From an uncultured Candidatus Saccharibacteria bacterium (lineage in GTDB: Bacteria > Patescibacteriota > Saccharimonadia > Saccharimonadales > UBA10212): a DNA stretch of 64,000 nt. The stretch spans positions 6,797 to 70,796 of the forward strand of contig CAYNSQ010000002.1 in NCBI GenBank assembly GCA_964400155.1, given 5' to 3'. A model generated the notes under the pieces. That model searched no databases, was not told the origin of the DNA, and saw nothing but the letters and a program-made list of their open reading frames with translations. Every line of letters begins with the position of its first letter. The first letter of the stretch is position 1. Positions 7,358-18,196 of the stretch are shown here, one piece after another. Made by a program: the position numbers and the translations under genes.

Positions 7358-9796
7358 ATGCAAAGATACAATCCATCTGAAATAGAGCCGAAATGGCAAA
7401 AAATTTGGGACGATAACCAGATCTATAAGGCTGATCTGGATTCTGAAAAGACCAAGTACATTGCAATGAGTATGTTCAATTATCCTAGCGGTGCGGGTAT
7501 TCATATTGGTCACGCCATGAATTACACCATTTCAGATGTCATGGCTCGGTTCAAACGTCAACAAGGTTATGAAAGCTACCACCCCGTTGGCTGGGATGCA
7601 TTTGGACTGCCGGCAGAGAATTTTGCCATCAAATCAGGTGTTTCACCTCAAGCTTCGATGGCCAAAATAATTCCCGACTACCACAGACAGTACAAAGCTA
7701 TGGGATGGAGCAATGACTGGAGCAAGGAAATATCAACTCATAATCCTGAGTATTACAAATGGACGCAGTGGATATTTTCACAAATGTATAAAGCAGGTCT
7801 AGCCTACCAAGACTCAAGAATGCAGTGGTGGTGCACAAAGTGTCAAACTGTTCTAGCAGACGAACAAGTGATAGATGGCAAATGCTGGAGGCATGATAGT
7901 AAAGACGATTTAATTGTAGAGAAAAAGGAAGTCAAGCAGTGGTTTTTCAAAATTACAGATTACGCAGATGAATTGCTTGAAGCTACGGAAGACCTTGATT
8001 GGTCTGATGCCGTAAAAATCGCTCAAAAAAATTGGATAGGTAAATCCGTCGGTGCCGAGATTGACTTCAAAGTAGATGGTCAAGATGAAGAAATCAAGGT
8101 ATTTACCACTAGGCCGGATACTATTTTTGGAGCGACGTTTCTGGTGCTGGCACCAGAGCACAATTTAGTCAGCCAGCTGACAGTCGATAGCCAAAAGTCG
8201 ATAGTCGAAAGCTATGTTGAGAAAGTTTTACGCAAAACCGAGGTGGAGCGGCAGGCTGATAAGGAAAAATCAGGTGTCTTCACAGGAAGTTATGCTCTCA
8301 ACCCGGCCAATAATGAAAGAATTCCCATATGGATAGCTGAGTATGTACTAACTGGTTACGGCACCGGAGCTATTATGGCTGTGCCGGCACATGATGAACG
8401 TGATTTTGAATTTGCCAAAAAGTTCGAGATTCCGGTAGTTGAAGTCATAAAAAAGCCAAAAGACTCAGAAGAAATATTTACTGGTGAAGGAGAATTGATT
8501 AATTCTGGGGACTATAGCGGGTTGAACAGTGCTGATGCTCGCGAGAAAATTACTGCGAAATTTGGAACCGAAAAAGTTAACTACAAAATGCGCGACTGGA
8601 GTGTTAGTCGACAGCGCTATTGGGGTGCACCAATTCCAATTATCCACTGCGAAAAATGCGGGCTAGTTTTGGTTGAAGACAAAGACTTACCCGTAGTTTT
8701 GCCAGAACTAGAAGATTTTCAACCGAGCGGTGATGGCAGGAGTGCACTTGCAAGAGCGTTAGAGTGGTTGAACGTGACATGTTCAAAGTGTGGTGGACCG
8801 GCTCAGCGCGAAACAGATACACTGGACACCTATATATGCAGTAGCTGGTATTTCTTACGCTACTTTGATCCAAACAACTCTGATCAACCCTTCGACAAGC
8901 TCAGGGTAAACAAATGGATGCCCATAGACTTTTATAATGGTGGTGATCATGCCACGGCGCATATGTTGTATGCCAGGTTTGTGACTCGGTTTTTTCACAA
9001 ATTGGGGTTGGTGGAACATCCGGAGCCGTTTAAAAAATTCCTATATAACGGAAAGGTTACTGCTTCTGACGGTAGCAACTTCAGCAAAAGCAAAGGTAAT
9101 GGTGTAGACCCATTAGAAATTATCGAACAAGGATACGGAGCCGATGCCTTGCGAACATATTTAATGTTTGCCGCACCGTTAGACCTTTGGATTCGTTGGG
9201 ATCCTCAAGGAGTCCCCGGGGCTTATAGGTTTCTAAACAGAGTCTGGACACTATGCCAAGAATACTTGGCAGAAATTGAAAGTGAAAAGTCAAATGTAGA
9301 AAGTCACAACAACGATCTCTTAAAACTTGCGCACAAAACAATTAAAAAGGTGACTCACGACCTTGAACATCAAAAATACAATACGGCGATTGCCGCGATG
9401 ATGAAAATGACCAACGATTTGTACGAAGAAAAAGCAAAAAATGGATTTTCAAATTCTGATGACTGGAAATTTGCTCTAGAGAGTCTGACCCAACTTGTAG
9501 CGCCATTTGCGCCTCACATAGCCGATGAAATTTGGCAAAAGTTGGGCTACCAAGATTCAGTAAATAAAGACCACTGGCCTCAATGGGACGAATCAATGGT
9601 GGTCGAAGATACCTTAATAATAGCTGTTCAAATAAACGGTAAAGTGCGTGCTGAAATTGAAGTAAATGCAGACGTTTCTGAAGAAGAGGCAGTGAACTTA
9701 GCAAAGTCTAACGAAAAAGTCAGATCTCAGATCGCAGACAAGAAAATTAAAAAAGCAATTTACGTGCCTGGTCGATTGGTTAGCTTTGTGGTTTAG
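7358..9796 (+). CDS. leuS: leucine--tRNA ligase
   Basis: 812 aa. HIGH-type motif (PSGAGIHIGHAMNY), KMSKS-type motif (NFSKSKGN), CP1 editing region and Zn-binding Cys clusters. Confidence 0.95.
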   Translation: MQRYNPSEIEPKWQKIWDDNQIYKADLDSEKTKYIAMSMFNYPSGAGIHIGHAMNYTISDVMARFKRQQGYESYHPVGWDAFGLPAENFAIKSGVSPQASMAKIIPDYHRQYKAMGWSNDWSKEISTHNPEYYKWTQWIFSQMYKAGLAYQDSRMQWWCTKCQTVLADEQVIDGKCWRHDSKDDLIVEKKEVKQWFFKITDYADELLEATEDLDWSDAVKIAQKNWIGKSVGAEIDFKVDGQDEEIKVFTTRPDTIFGATFLVLAPEHNLVSQLTVDSQKSIVESYVEKVLRKTEVERQADKEKSGVFTGSYALNPANNERIPIWIAEYVLTGYGTGAIMAVPAHDERDFEFAKKFEIPVVEVIKKPKDSEEIFTGEGELINSGDYSGLNSADAREKITAKFGTEKVNYKMRDWSVSRQRYWGAPIPIIHCEKCGLVLVEDKDLPVVLPELEDFQPSGDGRSALARALEWLNVTCSKCGGPAQRETDTLDTYICSSWYFLRYFDPNNSDQPFDKLRVNKWMPIDFYNGGDHATAHMLYARFVTRFFHKLGLVEHPEPFKKFLYNGKVTASDGSNFSKSKGNGVDPLEIIEQGYGADALRTYLMFAAPLDLWIRWDPQGVPGAYRFLNRVWTLCQEYLAEIESEKSNVESHNNDLLKLAHKTIKKVTHDLEHQKYNTAIAAMMKMTNDLYEEKAKNGFSNSDDWKFALESLTQLVAPFAPHIADEIWQKLGYQDSVNKDHWPQWDESMVVEDTLIIAVQINGKVRAEIEVNADVSEEEAVNLAKSNEKVRSQIADKKIKKAIYVPGRLVSFVV

Positions 9797-11108: not shown

Positions 11109-11111
11109 AAT

Positions 11112-11615
11112 ATGAAACGACCGAAACCGATAGCAGGTATAAAGAAATTTGCTCACAAACATCGCCCGGCAATCAACGAGGTAGTCCGTGAACCTACAGC
11201 CGGGGGTATTGTTTATCGACCTGCAAAAAGTGGAAGTGGAATAGAAATATTACTTATCCGTGATTCTAAAAATCGCTGGACTATTCCAAAAGGTCATATA
11301 GAAGAAGGAGAAACAGCTCGTCAAACAGCTGAGCGTGAAATCCGAGAAGAAACTGGTTTGCAAGAAATGGACGTGCAAGACTGGTTGGGTAAGATTAATT
11401 TTCGTTATAGACGAGCGAACAGTCTGGTTTTAATGACCACTGAGATTTTTTTAGTCAGAGCCAAGGGAAACACTGACAAAGTTCAATCTGAAGAGTGGAT
11501 GAGTAGTCTTGGATGGATGAGTAGCAATGATGCGCTAGAGAAAATTGAATACGATGATATCGGAAAACTAATTTTGTTAGCGCTAAAAAAGATTAGAGGA
11601 GACGGAGCGAAATGA
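11112..11615 (+). CDS. NUDIX hydrolase
   Basis: Nudix box GHIEEGETARQTAEREIREETG. Confidence 0.8.
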   Translation: MKRPKPIAGIKKFAHKHRPAINEVVREPTAGGIVYRPAKSGSGIEILLIRDSKNRWTIPKGHIEEGETARQTAEREIREETGLQEMDVQDWLGKINFRYRRANSLVLMTTEIFLVRAKGNTDKVQSEEWMSSLGWMSSNDALEKIEYDDIGKLILLALKKIRGDGAK

Positions 11616-16630: not shown

Positions 16631-16743
16631 TTTCTATTATCCTAAGTATAACGCTATTGCTTGTTCATTTGTTAAAAAAATATTCTAGTTTAAATCAACA
16701 TCTGGCAAAATAACACTTAAAGACCTATAATCTAACGAGTTAA

Positions 16744-16793
16744 TGGGGATTGGCCAAGCGGTAAGGCACTGGGTTCTGGTCCCAGGATCGGGG
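16744..16793 (+). pseudogene. truncated tRNA-Gln(CUG) copy 1 (acceptor 5' strand to T-stem 5' strand only)
   Basis: Identical to 17108-17157. It diverges after GATCGGGG and has no T-loop, acceptor 3' strand or CCA. Confidence 0.7.
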
Positions 16794-16925
16794 TGAAATC
16801 TGCCAGTGGCAGATTGCAAGGAAACCTTCTCTTGAAAACTTGTTTTCAAAGATGAAGTTTCGGGGTCGCCGAAGGTGACTCGAATCGGATTCGAACCCCG
16901 CATAGAGTATAATTTGTTAGGTTAA

Positions 16926-16975
16926 TGGGGATTGGCCAAGCGGTAAGGCACTGGGTTCTGGTCCCAGGATCGGGG
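16926..16975 (+). pseudogene. truncated tRNA-Gln(CUG) copy 2
   Basis: Same as copy 1. Confidence 0.7.
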
Positions 16976-17107
16976 TGAAATCTGCCAGTGGCAGATTGCA
17001 AGGAAACCTTCTCTTGAAAACTTGTTTTCAAAGATGAAGTTTCGGGGTCGCCGAAGGTGACTCGAATCGGATTCGAACCCCGCATAGAGTATAATTTGTT
17101 AGGTTAA

Positions 17108-17181
17108 TGGGGATTGGCCAAGCGGTAAGGCACTGGGTTCTGGTCCCAGGATCGGGGGTTCGAATCCCTCATCCCCAGCCA
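17108..17181 (+). tRNA. tRNA-Gln (anticodon CUG), CCA encoded
   Basis: Acceptor TGGGGAT/ATCCCCA has U1:A72 and discriminator G, as in bacterial tRNA-Gln. The anticodon arm is CTGGG-TTCTGGT-CCCAG and the T-arm is GGGGG-TTCGAAT-CCCTC. It is closely collinear with the E. coli tRNA-Gln2 sequence as I remember it. Confidence 0.9.
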
Positions 17182-17239
17182 ATCAATTTGCCTATAATAA
17201 CTATTCGAATGTAAAACATTGCTCTATGCTTAGTACTGG

Positions 17240-18196
17240 ATGACGCAAAAAACTATTTTAGGTCACAGCAAACTTGAAGTCAGACGGATTGGCCTTGGCT
17301 GTATGGGAATGTCAGAATTCTATGGAACCTTTGACGAAAAAGAATCCATAAATACATTGCACAAGGCTATTGACTTAGGGATTAATTTTTTCGACACTGC
17401 TGATATGTACGGTTGTGGAACAAATGAACAGCTATTGGGAAAAGCATTTAAAGGTCGTTGGAAAGACATTGTACTTGCAACCAAGTTTGGAGTTATGAGA
17501 GGGCCTAATGCAGAATTTCTAGGCCTCAACGGAAAAGCAGATTACATTAAAAAAGCATGCAACGCTAGCTTAAAACGCTTAGATGTAGAAGCTATTGATT
17601 TGTACTACATGCACCGGCAAGATCCAAAAGTTGAGATTGAGGAAATCATTGGCTCATTAGCAGACTTGATCAAGCAAGGTAAAGTGAAAAATATTGGACT
17701 TTGTGAAGTAAGTGCTGAAACTCTTCGCAGAGCACATGCTATTCATCCTATTTCAGCAGTTCAAACAGAATATTCTTTGTGGAGTCGCGAACCGGAGAAA
17801 GAACTTTTTAAAGTATGCAAAGAATTAGGCGTCTCTTTTGTTGCGTACAGTCCGCTTGGTAGAGGATTTCTGACAGGTACTATAAAAAGTCGCGCTGATT
17901 TGGAAACTGGTGATTTCCGTCTTTCCAATCCTCGATTTACTGACGAAGCCATGCAAAAAAATCTAAAATTTGTTGAGGTCGTTTCCCTAATCGCCCAAAA
18001 AAAAGGAGTTTCAAGCGCACAGATAGCTCTAGCTTGGATTTTGAGTCAAAACGATGAAATAATTGCTATCCCAGGCACCCGTAAAATCCATCGTCTTAAA
18101 GAAAACCTCAGCGCGTTAAACGTGGAGCTGAACGACGAGGATTTGTCTATCATTGAACAACACTTGCCTAAAGAAACAGTCGGTGCACGTTACTGA
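17240..18196 (+). CDS. aldo/keto reductase
   Basis: Matches include LGCMGMS, FFDTADMYG, LATKFG, LKRLDVEAIDLYYMHRQD, IGLCEVS, EYSLW, YSPLGRGFLTG and IPGTRK. Confidence 0.85.
   Translation: MTQKTILGHSKLEVRRIGLGCMGMSEFYGTFDEKESINTLHKAIDLGINFFDTADMYGCGTNEQLLGKAFKGRWKDIVLATKFGVMRGPNAEFLGLNGKADYIKKACNASLKRLDVEAIDLYYMHRQDPKVEIEEIIGSLADLIKQGKVKNIGLCEVSAETLRRAHAIHPISAVQTEYSLWSREPEKELFKVCKELGVSFVAYSPLGRGFLTGTIKSRADLETGDFRLSNPRFTDEAMQKNLKFVEVVSLIAQKKGVSSAQIALAWILSQNDEIIAIPGTRKIHRLKENLSALNVELNDEDLSIIEQHLPKETVGARY

Follow-up and report, generated by a model that had tools for sequence, protein, structure and literature searches.

A probably new structured-RNA element beside tRNA genes of Saccharibacteria, tandemly repeated at a tRNA-Gln locus

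Two identical units, each carrying an 89-nt structured module (M) within a truncated copy of tRNA-Gln, stand in front of the intact tRNA-Gln(CUG) gene of an uncultured Candidatus Saccharibacteria bacterium. This tRNA-associated element is real, probably new, and neither an assembly error nor a phage scar. The explanation we favor, with modest confidence, is a mobile-like cassette of structured RNA, so far undescribed and protein-less, which duplicates part of the tRNA that it targets and was recently amplified at this site by unequal recombination. The window analyzed was a stretch of 64,000 nucleotides, in which the array comprises the following features:

16702..16731, + strand: native promoter-like site, CTGGCA and TATAAT with an 18-nt spacer (consensus scan, 10/12 matches)
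16739..16743, + strand: GTTAA leader and left edge of the repeat (start of the Tandem Repeats Finder repeat; local alignment of fragment and intact gene begins at −5)
16744..16793, + strand: tRNA-Gln fragment 1 (nt 1 to 50: acceptor 5′ strand, D-arm, anticodon arm, variable loop, and 4 G of the T-stem), identical to 17108-17157; Rfam tRNA 18.2 bits, sub-threshold
16793..16881, + strand: module M copy 1, 89 nt, hairpins P1, P2, and P3; covariance model R1 103.4 bits, E=1e-19; structure supported by covariation
16880..16886, + strand: TCGAATC, T-loop 3′ half of the interrupted tRNA copy (tRNA nt 53 to 59), from junction mapping; shares 2 nt with the end of M
16887..16900, + strand: GGATTCGAACCCCG, antisense T-arm copy 1, with a 13-nt perfect complement of the intact T-arm
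16908..16913, + strand: internal TATAAT, 12 nt before the following tRNA begins, lacking a −35 partner (from sequence; absent from the promoter-scan output)
16926..16975, + strand: tRNA-Gln fragment 2 (nt 1 to 50), identical to fragment 1
16975..17063, + strand: module M copy 2; R1 103.4 bits
17069..17082, + strand: antisense T-arm copy 2, 73 nt 5′ of the T-arm it complements (complementarity check)
17090..17095, + strand: internal TATAAT ahead of the intact gene (from sequence)
17108..17181, + strand: intact tRNA-Gln(CUG) with encoded CCA (ARAGORN; Rfam tRNA 60.8 bits)

Tandem Repeats Finder reported 16739-17157 as a perfect tandem repeat with a period of 182, 2.3 copies, 100% matches, and 0 indels. 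Units 16744-16925 and 16926-17107 are identical and the intact gene terminates the array, in agreement with the first-pass annotation, which had placed the third repeat start at the intact tRNA-Gln. The same annotation correctly described each unit as keeping tRNA nt 1 to 50 before diverging; the last shared base is nt 50, the fourth G of the T-stem. The remaining 132 nt consist of M plus a 43-nt tail (T-loop 3′ half, antisense T-arm, and −10 box). The direct repeat spans tRNA nt −5 to +50, a 55-nt 5′ part whose copies lie 127 nt apart. Within a unit the order is tRNA nt 1 to 50, M, and tRNA nt 53 to 59, the interrupted copy has no acceptor 3′ strand, and 45 nt separate the second M from the intact gene. 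ARAGORN and Rfam made a sole tRNA-Gln(CTG) call, at 17108-17181 (60.8 bits), with both fragments sub-threshold at 18.2 bits.

A consensus scan found only one −35/−10 pair on the + strand upstream of the array, at 16702..16731, and the proximal part of this site is conserved in the relative L006. The GTTAA leader lies about 7 nt past the −10 box and is therefore plausibly the transcription start. The first-pass annotation had noted a TATAAT box at a fixed distance ahead of every copy; this was correct for all three boxes (16726-31, 16908-13, and 17090-95, each 12 nt 5′ of TGGGG), but a full promoter-like site is present at the first unit only. The block at 16908..16913 has a conserved counterpart in L011 and a remnant in L007. 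The consensus scan found no + strand terminator inside the array.

Two 100% identical units suggest a very recent unequal crossover or slippage, and this identity supports the earlier proposal of a recent segmental amplification. The same identity would also be seen if the array were a neutral recent junk duplication, or an assembly artefact that expanded one copy, a combined possibility that we consider very improbable. Short-read contigs of four independent runs end exactly 30 nt (k−1) into the repeat, at 16768 and 17128; they place the repeat boundary, though not the number of units, in four independent runs and show that a branching repeat is present in other samples. An artefact, one of the options raised at first pass, is unlikely because other samples share this graph branch and because an array of the same design, with two diverged units, occurs at a tRNA-Pro (L068). 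For the module itself, a neutral origin is largely refuted by conservation with compensatory changes across hundreds of loci.

Across 52 copies of M, 96.6% of pair cells were standard pairs, compared to about 40% when the partners were slid, and compensatory (double) changes occurred in 26 of 36 pairs, a level reached by 0 of 500 shuffles. A near-invariant G-U wobble was found in 48 of the 52 copies. Comparison of the window with the closely related contig L006 revealed 14 differing sites, made up of five compensated pairs (10 sites) and four unpaired positions, with no pairs broken. The fold is specific to one strand, scoring 103 bits with R1 versus 16 bits on the opposite strand, and both the fold and the joining nucleotides are under strong purifying selection. 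M is defined by P1-P2-P3 together with the conserved joiners GUGAGA and GCAAG and a GAA loop, all of which are present in both window copies. Family membership was taken as an R1 score above ~30 bits; the window copies were in the R1 training alignment, with independent support for their membership coming from the shared 19-mer, alignment to 16 genome loci, and the compensatory changes in L006.

Covariation in homologues also clarified which of the predicted helices exist. The two hairpins annotated at first pass in the 132-nt part, AATCTGCC/GGCAGATT and TCTTGAAAA/TTTTCAAAGA, correspond to P1 and the P2 tip and are real. P3, GGGGUCGCC-GAA-GGUGACUC, is a plain 8-bp hairpin supported by covariation, so its G-run is not free to form a three-way junction with ACCCCG, and the annotated junction closed by CGGGGT/ACCCCG conflicts with this conserved element. 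ACCCCG had been predicted to pair either locally or with the orphan T-stem; the G-run needed for the former is occupied by P3, whereas the latter is found in the minimum-free-energy fold of the whole unit, where ACCCCG is paired with CGGGGU, the T-stem strand left without its partner in the tRNA fragment. The annotated antisense of the canonical T-arm was confirmed as a 13-nt exact match, with GGATTCGAACCCC (17069-81) 100% complementary to GGGGTTCGAATCC (17155-67). Hammerhead, box C/D, K-turn, group II/III boundary, and HDV-like motifs (CUGAUGA, GUGA...UGA, GUGAG...AC) were considered by eye and rejected, the motifs being unconserved or inside covariation-supported helices.

M represents a large family in Saccharibacteria that, as far as the literature found goes, is undescribed. 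The 19-mer of P3 matched about 16 real loci or assemblies in a genome collection, most of them titled Saccharibacteria or Saccharimonadales, and a pattern from the 5′ half of M matched at least 120 metagenome stretches; these pattern scans favor copies with the chosen sequences and may under-represent those that lie apart from tRNAs or in other settings. A covariance model and a scan of relatives had been proposed at first pass, along with a comparison of the tRNA-Gln locus; R1 recovered 125 copies in 598 kb of fetched loci, and among relatives M carries compensatory changes in L006, is absent at the same tRNA-Gln in L009, and has left a decayed remnant in L007. M itself is missing from L007, L008, and L009. 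Near-identical modules are hosted by different tRNAs in different genomes, and single contigs can hold several: at least three copies lie on one contig (L037, L093), and three each were found in L070, L063, L013, L086, and L061. Nested copies occur, as do other tandem arrays, with periods of 189 (L068, two diverged units at tRNA-Pro) and 186 (L076). Some copies within one genome are old and diverged with the fold retained (L093, L063).

Searches for a known counterpart were negative. Rfam 15 at E≤10, applied to the window and to the consensus-like copy L022, returned nothing overlapping M, and a search of 32 loci at gathering score yielded nothing besides tRNA, tmRNA, and a single RAGATH-10 distant from M. 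Viral contigs contained no exact match to the hairpins of the module, to the tRNA fragment, or to either of two consensus patterns of the family; blastn against phage and plasmid records was likewise negative, and a full-text literature search found no published description of such a module. M is not tRNA-derived, but is an independent element that interrupts a tRNA copy at its T-loop. It is found with tmRNA as well, and with 15 or more further tRNA specificities. The first-pass proposal of a tRNA-derived structured RNA family is strongly supported as to the family, which has hundreds of homologues with compensatory changes, and fails for the derivation of the 89-nt module. That proposal was offered as an alternative to amplification or an artefact; RNA family and recent amplification are not mutually exclusive, since both hold.

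Placement beside tRNA and tmRNA genes was strongly patterned, with M lodged in a truncated copy of the intact cognate gene next to it. In 126 pattern copies, an intact tRNA was found downstream of 42 and upstream of 51, and the other 33, many at contig ends, had no tRNA in range. Orientation matched that of the nearest tRNA in 94 cases and opposed it in 2. Host genes represented at least 15 amino-acid specificities plus tmRNA, and units were either upstream of the intact gene with a 5′ fragment, as in the window, or downstream with a 3′ fragment, the downstream type lying 72-90 nt from the tRNA end. Junctions were mapped to T-loop 54/55, hinge nt 25-27, the D-loop, the anticodon loop, and the variable loop, most commonly between T54 and T55, and every mapped insertion point is single-stranded in the folded tRNA. 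Family-wide, junctions miss 1-2 tRNA nt; in the window, alignment to the tRNA picks up again at nt 53, 2 nt before P3 ends. Microhomology of 1-3 nt is present at junctions, with G on the 5′ side and (T)C on the 3′ side. The tRNA part of a unit invariably starts at about +1 (−5 to +1) or ends at the CCA or terminator, edges that would be explained by selection for a working gene, and also by an RNA intermediate or site-specific integration. Snap-back inverted copies were also seen at fragment ends. A split-tRNA or permuted-tRNA arrangement was rejected, as upstream and downstream units are usually single and sit with different tRNAs.

The antisense T-arm is one feature of the flanks that recurs. 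It also follows M in L011 (Gln) and L019 (Val), and near M it is enriched, at 40% of downstream-type units versus 2% of controls. A universal flank-flank helix was rejected: predicted helices between M flanks gave −18.0 kcal/mol for own-locus versus −17.2 kcal/mol for mismatched-locus pairs (p=0.11), shuffling gave z<−2 in only ~10% of loci, and the antisense T-arm enrichment alone survived. 

The conserved RNA fold means that some step depends on RNA structure, either propagation or a service to the host. In the latter case, M would be a host noncoding RNA, acting in cis or trans and repeatedly recruited to tRNA operons, where the tRNA promoter, terminator, and RNase P/Z would give it expression and ends, and the tRNA-derived flanks and antisense T-arm would form a helix for closing or processing, or would sense the cognate tRNA. 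Selection on the fold, joiners, and near-invariant G-U pair is consistent with such a role, as are the 94:2 co-orientation, the stereotyped downstream spacing of 72-90 nt, the old but still-folded copies within one genome (L093, L063), and the 40% versus 2% enrichment of the antisense T-arm. We consider it fairly unlikely all the same, given the patchy distribution among relatives (L009 empty at the same tRNA-Gln, L007 with a remnant), nested and identical tandem copies typical of selfish amplification, and the appearance of one module sequence with different tRNAs in different genomes; location inside a truncated tRNA copy would also be left unexplained.

Of particular relevance to a mobile cassette is whether any protein travels with it. 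When ORFs lying up to 4 kb from M at ~135 loci were compared all-against-all by BLAST, no conserved neighbor was found, with no family in more than 8 loci, and the top neighbor clusters were housekeeping by Pfam, except for large serine recombinases in 4 distinct loci. Those recombinase genes adjoin M-bearing tRNA-Gln or tRNA-Val (L011, L096/L064, L086, L060), and in L061, L055, and L032 cargo ORFs flanked by tRNA 3′-end repeats lie between units. In the window, Pfam identified no integrase within ~7 kb of the array, the 10 flanking genes being housekeeping enzymes only, and tblastn with serine recombinases from other loci found no large serine recombinase in the 64 kb. The first-pass view that an att scar fits poorly was upheld, and a classical att scar was rejected: no integrase was found among the flanking genes, the repeat is the 5′ rather than the 3′ tRNA part, and the gap is 127 nt compared to a kb-sized element.

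A related possibility is that units are miniature or decayed integrative elements of a tyrosine integrase or large serine recombinase that targets dyad-symmetric tRNA/tmRNA arms, with M as the attP-side end and the partial tRNA as the gene-restoring copy. Classical integrases reportedly favor tRNA/tmRNA targets (Williams 2002), the T-loop and anticodon loop among them, and M units use the same targets. The tRNA portions reach the exact gene end, like att identity blocks, and both the four recombinase-associated sites and the repeat-flanked cargo ORFs would fit, as would the tandem serine-recombinase islands known at tmRNA in Dehalococcoides (PMC3146451). Such an origin is nonetheless unlikely: only 4 of ~135 loci have a recombinase close to M and none was found in the window, the inter-repeat space is only ~130 nt in nearly all loci, and junctions drop 1-2 nt with no shared overlap retained. 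Duplex binding sites would show no compensatory, G-U-tolerant, strand-specific covariation, and a single module family at 15 or more tRNA specificities contrasts with single-site integrases.

Insertion could also be RNA-mediated: ligation, reverse splicing, or template switching by reverse transcriptase would place M RNA in an exposed loop of a tRNA transcript, and the chimera would be copied back into DNA at the tRNA gene. Insertion points that are all single-stranded (D-loop, nt 26, anticodon, variable, and T-loop), duplicated parts whose start coincides with a mature or primary 5′ terminus (−5 to +1) or whose finish is the CCA or terminator, 1-3 nt microhomology, strong orientation bias, and snap-back copies would all be consistent with an RNA step. 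We still regard it as quite unlikely, since ORF clustering and Pfam found no reverse transcriptase near any M locus, group II introns were undetected in 95 complete Patescibacteria genomes (PMC13011429), two cases have the opposite orientation, and the −10 box that precedes the tRNA-derived segment of the window unit would be missing from an RNA copy.

In the cassette mechanism that we favor, the native promoter at 16702-31 would drive co-transcription of fragment-M-fragment-M-tRNA, with no + strand terminator between, M would self-fold, closed by the T-stem or the antisense T-arm, and RNase P would release the upstream RNA by cutting at the 5′ end of the intact tRNA. Insertion would never destroy the essential tRNA gene because the unit is proposed to bring the displaced tRNA part along. 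The tRNA-derived direct repeats (55 nt here) would allow the ~185-nt unit to amplify, loop out, and re-insert by homologous recombination, and DNA uptake may assist its spread; Saccharibacteria are naturally competent, and a cassette was inserted in them via added homology arms (PMC10633639). Weighing against this mechanism, pure homologous recombination would have no need of a conserved RNA fold and leaves the first loop insertion, with its loss of 1-2 nt, unexplained. A bolder and only tentative version of this proposal is that M represents a new class of bacterial mobile element, a protein-less, structure-dependent RNA cassette, ribozyme-like or using host tRNA-handling enzymes, that enters exposed tRNA/tmRNA loops and becomes fixed in DNA with a partial target copy. 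In that version the antisense T-arm may be an internal guide or splint bringing the two halves of the target into register.

If the cassette reading is true, Patescibacteria and Saccharibacteria, whose noncoding RNA biology is almost unexplored, would gain a large and strongly supported structured-RNA family, and minimal genomes would be seen to withstand, or to make use of, recurrent remodelling at tRNA loci that are essential. An insert that brings the displaced gene piece and depends on no self-encoded protein would give selfish DNA a new way to live inside an essential single-copy gene, and RNA- or recombination-dependent mobility would become testable in bacteria without group II introns. 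M units also break short-read assemblies and yield pseudo-tRNA calls, and could serve as strain markers or, in Saccharibacteria amenable to genetics, as natural 'tRNA-scaffold' sites for expression.

Several known systems share features with M units. Integrative elements at tRNA/tmRNA genes (prophages, ICEs, tycheposons, and Dehalococcoides ssrA islands) likewise use loop-plus-stem sites, preserve the gene with a partial tRNA copy, leave the displaced fragment as a direct repeat, and can stack in tandem. Unlike these, M units are ~130-190 nt with no integrase, exist in 5′- and 3′-restoring forms, lose 1-2 nt at junctions, and use one module for many tRNA species, and their conserved part is a strand-specific folded RNA rather than a protein-binding duplex. 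Archaeal BHB tRNA introns, including the 'transposed' introns of Thermoproteales, are also small noncoding inserts at many tRNA positions, D and T regions among them, with related inserts in different tRNAs and sometimes several per tRNA. In contrast, M is found in bacteria, its host copy is truncated and non-functional, its removal leaves the tRNA 1-2 nt short, and an intact tRNA adjoins the unit in 93 of 126 pattern copies. A self-splicing or enzyme-spliced tRNA intron was rejected on these same grounds: an incomplete interrupted copy, 1-2 missing nt, and the adjacent intact copy in 93/126.

Group I introns interrupt tRNA genes of Patescibacteria (PMC13011429) and, like M, are structured, protein-less RNA inserts in the same phylum. 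Those introns exceed 200 nt, self-splice, match Rfam Intron_gpI, and occupy the anticodon loop of the only functional copy (PMC13011429), whereas M, at 89 nt, matches nothing in Rfam and interrupts a partial copy that is itself dead. A group I intron was rejected for M, with its three simple hairpins in 89 nt and no Rfam match (E≤10, window and L022).

MITEs and other small repeats (Correia, RPE, and palindrome-associated derivatives of IS200/IS605) are similarly ~100-200 nt, hairpin-rich, multi-copy, and ORF-less, and some of them (RPE) enter RNA genes and leave the gene alive. M has the copy number, presence/absence variation, nesting, and absence of ORFs of a MITE, but not inverted termini (GUGAG... 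and ...GUGAC are not inverted repeats) or a few-bp target-site duplication, in place of which 1-2 nt are lost and a 20-60-nt partial copy of the target is found. M also differs from MITEs in its strict association with tRNA/tmRNA and its RNA-like covariation. Eukaryotic tRNA-derived SINEs have, like M units, a 5′ tRNA-related part and an unrelated structured body; unlike SINEs, which spread genome-wide via LINE reverse transcriptase, M units stay at the cognate tRNA, and their tRNA part copies the neighboring gene.

Both window copies of the 89-nt three-hairpin module M (16793-16881 and 16975-17063) lie in an array reported as the sole one at 16739-17157 by Tandem Repeats Finder (period 182, 2.3 copies, 100% matches, no indels), and comparison of the 182-nt units 16744-16925 and 16926-17107 showed them to be identical. 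ARAGORN and Rfam called tRNA-Gln(CUG) at 17108-17181 only (60.8 bits), while the two upstream copies received 18.2 bits each from Rfam because they are truncated at tRNA nt 50, within the 5' strand of the T-stem. The tandem array before an intact tRNA-Gln(CUG) that the first-pass annotation had described is thus confirmed, as is its TATAAT box 12 nt ahead of every TGGGG, with a promoter consensus scan finding a −35-like partner for the first box only. The antisense T-arm noted there also holds, GGATTCGAACCCC complementing the T-arm of the intact tRNA-Gln perfectly over 13 nt. The site with both promoter elements is as follows.

16702-31, + strand, native promoter-like site ahead of tRNA fragment 1

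Judged from its −10 box, transcription from this site would start at about the left edge of the repeat, at −5 of the tRNA. A scan of the + strand within the array found no terminator-like sites, and because this strand lacks a terminator until past the tRNA, a single transcript would be expected to run through the array into tRNA-Gln. Its simplest form would be fragment-M-tail-fragment-M-tail-tRNA-Gln, from which RNase P would release the RNA upstream of tRNA-Gln. The first 7 nt after the acceptor (GCCAATC, 17178-17184), which overlap the encoded CCA, complement tRNA nt 5 to 11 (GATTGGC, 17112-17118), and another TATAAT, at 17194-17199, probably belongs to the aldo/keto reductase gene that lies at 17240. 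A covariance-model scan found no module or fragment beside tRNA-Ala(GGC) at 1574-1650, which is the one tRNA of the window apart from tRNA-Gln.

Exact-protein look-ups of both genes flanking the array led to contigs assembled from the short reads of four independent sequencing runs. They stop at 16768 or begin at 17128, exactly 30 nt (k−1) inside both repeat edges, as expected where a real repeat branches the de Bruijn graph. The repeat is thus not confined to this assembly, and the fragment-plus-module and the intact gene coexist in the samples of those four runs, copy number not being given by contig breaks. The two-unit array of the window is credible because an array in comparison locus L068, with two diverged upstream-type units of the same design before tRNA-Pro (period 189), cannot be an assembly artefact. 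The artefact suggested earlier is unlikely.

M is part of a very large family. Homologues of M were recovered with a 19-mer from the third hairpin (P3), which matched 22 stretches in a species-representative genome collection, about 16 of them real homologues, and with a degenerate 24-mer taken from P1, hairpin one, which matched at least 120 metagenome stretches; since every homologue was found by exact patterns from M itself, this census is biased. Most of the approximately 16 were Saccharibacteria or Saccharimonadales, organism names being taken from record titles. The consensus from 17 genome copies comprised three hairpins, with compensatory changes in 20 of 31 pairs. In a 52-sequence alignment, standard pairs filled 96.6% of 1,840 cells, compared to 28 to 41% when partners were slid by 1 to 3 columns, both sides had changed in 26 of 36 pairs, none of 500 shuffles reached any of five structure measures, and one P3 G-U wobble was retained in 48 sequences. 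The invariance of P3 in the first homologue set reflected nothing but its use as the search pattern, and P3 covaried in the set recovered through P1. P1, P2, and P3 are covariation-supported helices within every unit.

R1, the covariance model of M built here, gave both window copies 103.4 bits on the + strand versus 16 bits on the − strand, from a training alignment that included both copies and with E-values that are rough for a home-built model. It found 125 copies across 598 kb of fetched loci and no M in the 64-kb window beyond the two in the array. M is a strand-specific, selected fold, which bears out the structured RNA family proposed as one of the original alternatives and essentially excludes neutral junk or artefact as an account of the module. 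That M is a host noncoding RNA relying on tRNA operons for expression is a reading we consider unlikely. The three-way junction drawn earlier claims the G-run of P3 and is therefore at odds with the family structure. When the whole unit is folded to minimum free energy, M is instead enclosed by a pairing between ACCCCG and CGGGGU, the orphan T-stem strand of the fragment. A general flank-to-flank helix had no statistical support across the M family, and such closure is plausible for the window locus only.

The genomic setting of M follows a stereotyped plan. Among 126 pattern-defined copies of M, 42 were of the upstream type, in which M and a 5' fragment precede an intact tRNA (mostly 111 to 190 nt downstream, in a few cases up to 342 nt), and 51 were of the downstream type, in which M and a 3' fragment follow an intact tRNA whose end is mostly 72 to 90 nt upstream. 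M is confined to partial tRNA or tmRNA copies beside intact ones, with the remaining 33 copies having no tRNA in range, many of them at contig ends. Hosts covered at least 15 amino acid specificities, plus tmRNA. Orientation matched that of the nearest tRNA in 94 copies and was opposite in two, with the L118 module lying within a partial copy of the complementary strand of a tRNA-Phe gene:

L117, 4103, M opposite in orientation to the nearest tRNA
L118, 4159, M opposite in orientation to the nearest tRNA

Upstream-type units begin with a tRNA copy that starts at about the first nucleotide (−5 to +1) and reaches the insertion site, after which come M, 7 to 13 nt more of the tRNA, and a short spacer, often with a −10 box, before the intact gene. 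In downstream-type units, M lies about 40 nt past the terminator of the intact gene and is succeeded by the remainder of the tRNA, CCA included, in most cases with another terminator behind it. An antisense T-arm of the neighboring gene (at least 7 nt, exact) preceded M in 40% of downstream-type units, versus 2% in the sense-orientation control, and was found in 30% of upstream-type units, there within the spacer, versus 14%. The window copy, GGATTCGAACCCCG, is common to L011 (Gln) and L019 (Val).

Mapping of junctions against the adjacent intact gene placed the commonest insertion site at T54/T55 of the T-loop, as in the window, where tRNA nt 1 to 50 are followed by M and then by the tRNA from nt 53. 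Further sites were the hinge (nt 25 to 27), D-loop, anticodon loop, and variable loop, all single stranded in folded tRNA. Junctions were short of 1 or 2 tRNA nucleotides, and the 5' flank ends with G and the 3' flank starts with (T)C, which match the ends of M. Insertion at the RNA level followed by copying back into DNA, a route we consider quite improbable, is favored by the loop-only sites and by duplicated tRNA parts whose limits resemble those of transcripts. No reverse transcriptase lies nearby, however, and group II introns are reported absent from 95 complete Patescibacteria genomes (PMC13011429).

Several traits of M are those expected of mobile or amplifying elements. Near-identical modules occurred beside different tRNAs in different genomes, and several diverged copies shared one contig (L037 and L093 are both from one 334-kb contig). 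L070 had two modules within one pseudo-tRNA-Leu and a third after the intact gene, L076 had two downstream-type units with a period of 186, and some modules were nested in the P3 region of others. No protein family accompanying M was found near module loci; the units amplify in tandem and are multicopy without a dedicated protein. Large serine recombinases with Resolvase, Recombinase, and Zn_ribbon_recom domains were found in four distinct loci only, 0.1 to 1.8 kb from an M-bearing tRNA-Gln or tRNA-Val, and none was found in the window:

L011, 1841-3097, − strand, large serine recombinase, in the locus with the closest relative of the window unit
L096, about 430-1850, − strand, large serine recombinase, same as in L064
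L086, 3671-5305, + strand, large serine recombinase
L060, 3196-4479, + strand, large serine recombinase

Small cargo open reading frames lie between successive downstream-type units in L061 (11100-12800), L055 (about 700-1000), and L032 (around the module at 11111-11199). They include a GNAT acetyltransferase and a small protein that resembles a zinc ribbon by eye, with no significant Pfam match; each has the final 9 nt of a tRNA (GGCCCTCCA) and a terminator behind it, a layout that looks like a cassette array on pseudo-tRNA 3' ends. Miniature or decayed site-specific integrative elements would share the target range of these units and fit the cargo and the few recombinases, and we judge this origin improbable.

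The explanation we lean toward is a self-contained cassette spread by homologous recombination. Each unit would bring the gene piece that it displaces, so an essential tRNA could survive the insertion. The tRNA-derived direct repeats (55 nt here) would drive unequal crossover, loop-out, and reinsertion, and conserved tRNA sequence could double as portable homology arms in Saccharibacteria, which are naturally competent (PMC10633639). The identical window units, which agree with the recent amplification envisaged in the first-pass annotation, would be a very recent product of such recombination. This model leaves unexplained the conservation of the RNA fold and the first loop insertion with its loss of 1 to 2 nt.

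Relatives at the tRNA-Gln locus provide a closer comparison. L006, where the neighboring membrane protein is 91% identical, has the same promoter, tRNA fragment, and module as the window. Its 14 differences over the 89-nt core comprise 10 in five doubly compensated pairs and 4 at unpaired positions, with none disrupting a pair, so that selection on structure is already visible in this close relative. L007 to L009 are more distant, and R1 found no M in them. In L009, tRNA-Gln stands alone, and there is no space in which a module could fit. In L007 and L008, only a decayed unit tail is present, joined to 12 nt from a tRNA-Gln of foreign type:

L007, 2285-2335 (same in L008), unit-tail remnant GATTAGAACCCC...GGGTATAAT...TAATGGGGATTGGCC, 70 nt upstream of the locus's own tRNA-Gln

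That tRNA-Gln differs in its acceptor stem and points the other way with respect to the conserved neighboring gene, a hint of horizontal acquisition or of a rearrangement long ago.

The closest analogues of these units are tRNA-targeting integrative elements, archaeal noncanonical tRNA introns, group I tRNA introns of the same phylum, MITE-like repeats, and tRNA-derived SINEs, and at least one tested defining feature of each is lacking from M units. No overlapping family was found in Rfam 15, M was absent from viral contigs, phage records, and plasmid records, and no description of such a module was found in the literature. Conservatively, the element is placed among small, nonautonomous, tRNA gene-targeting elements; whether it is a categorically new, structure-dependent, protein-less mobile RNA element we regard as doubtful, if a serious possibility.

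Several variants were also observed. In L037, L087, and L090, a second M begins right after the P3 CGGGG, giving nested modules, and an extended class (L041, L049, L051, L058, L086, L088, L092, and L106) has CCGGAAG...GAGGCG in place of P2 and an extra AAATTT hairpin inside P3. In L149 (820-1000, − strand), an antisense tmRNA T-arm lies about 70 nt downstream of the tmRNA gene and terminator, and the unit after it has only P1 in common with M and ends in a duplicate of the tmRNA 3' end; tmRNA is thus also a host, and modules appear modular. The third unit after tRNA-Leu in L063 (reverse-complement coordinates about 590-720) has a downstream-type layout and a module without evident similarity to M, so other module families may use the same niche. 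In L096 (379-413), and also in L046 after its tRNA-Gln, a second tRNA-Gln 3' fragment (TTCGAATCC...CCAGCCA), in L096 with an acceptor strand of a different type, lies only 11 nt past the intact gene, whose acceptor stem is lengthened by a leader/trailer inverted repeat. On the M-bearing contig L117, a RAGATH-10 RNA (Rfam RF03147, 51.6 bits) lies at 8843-8928 on the − strand, 4.7 kb from the module.
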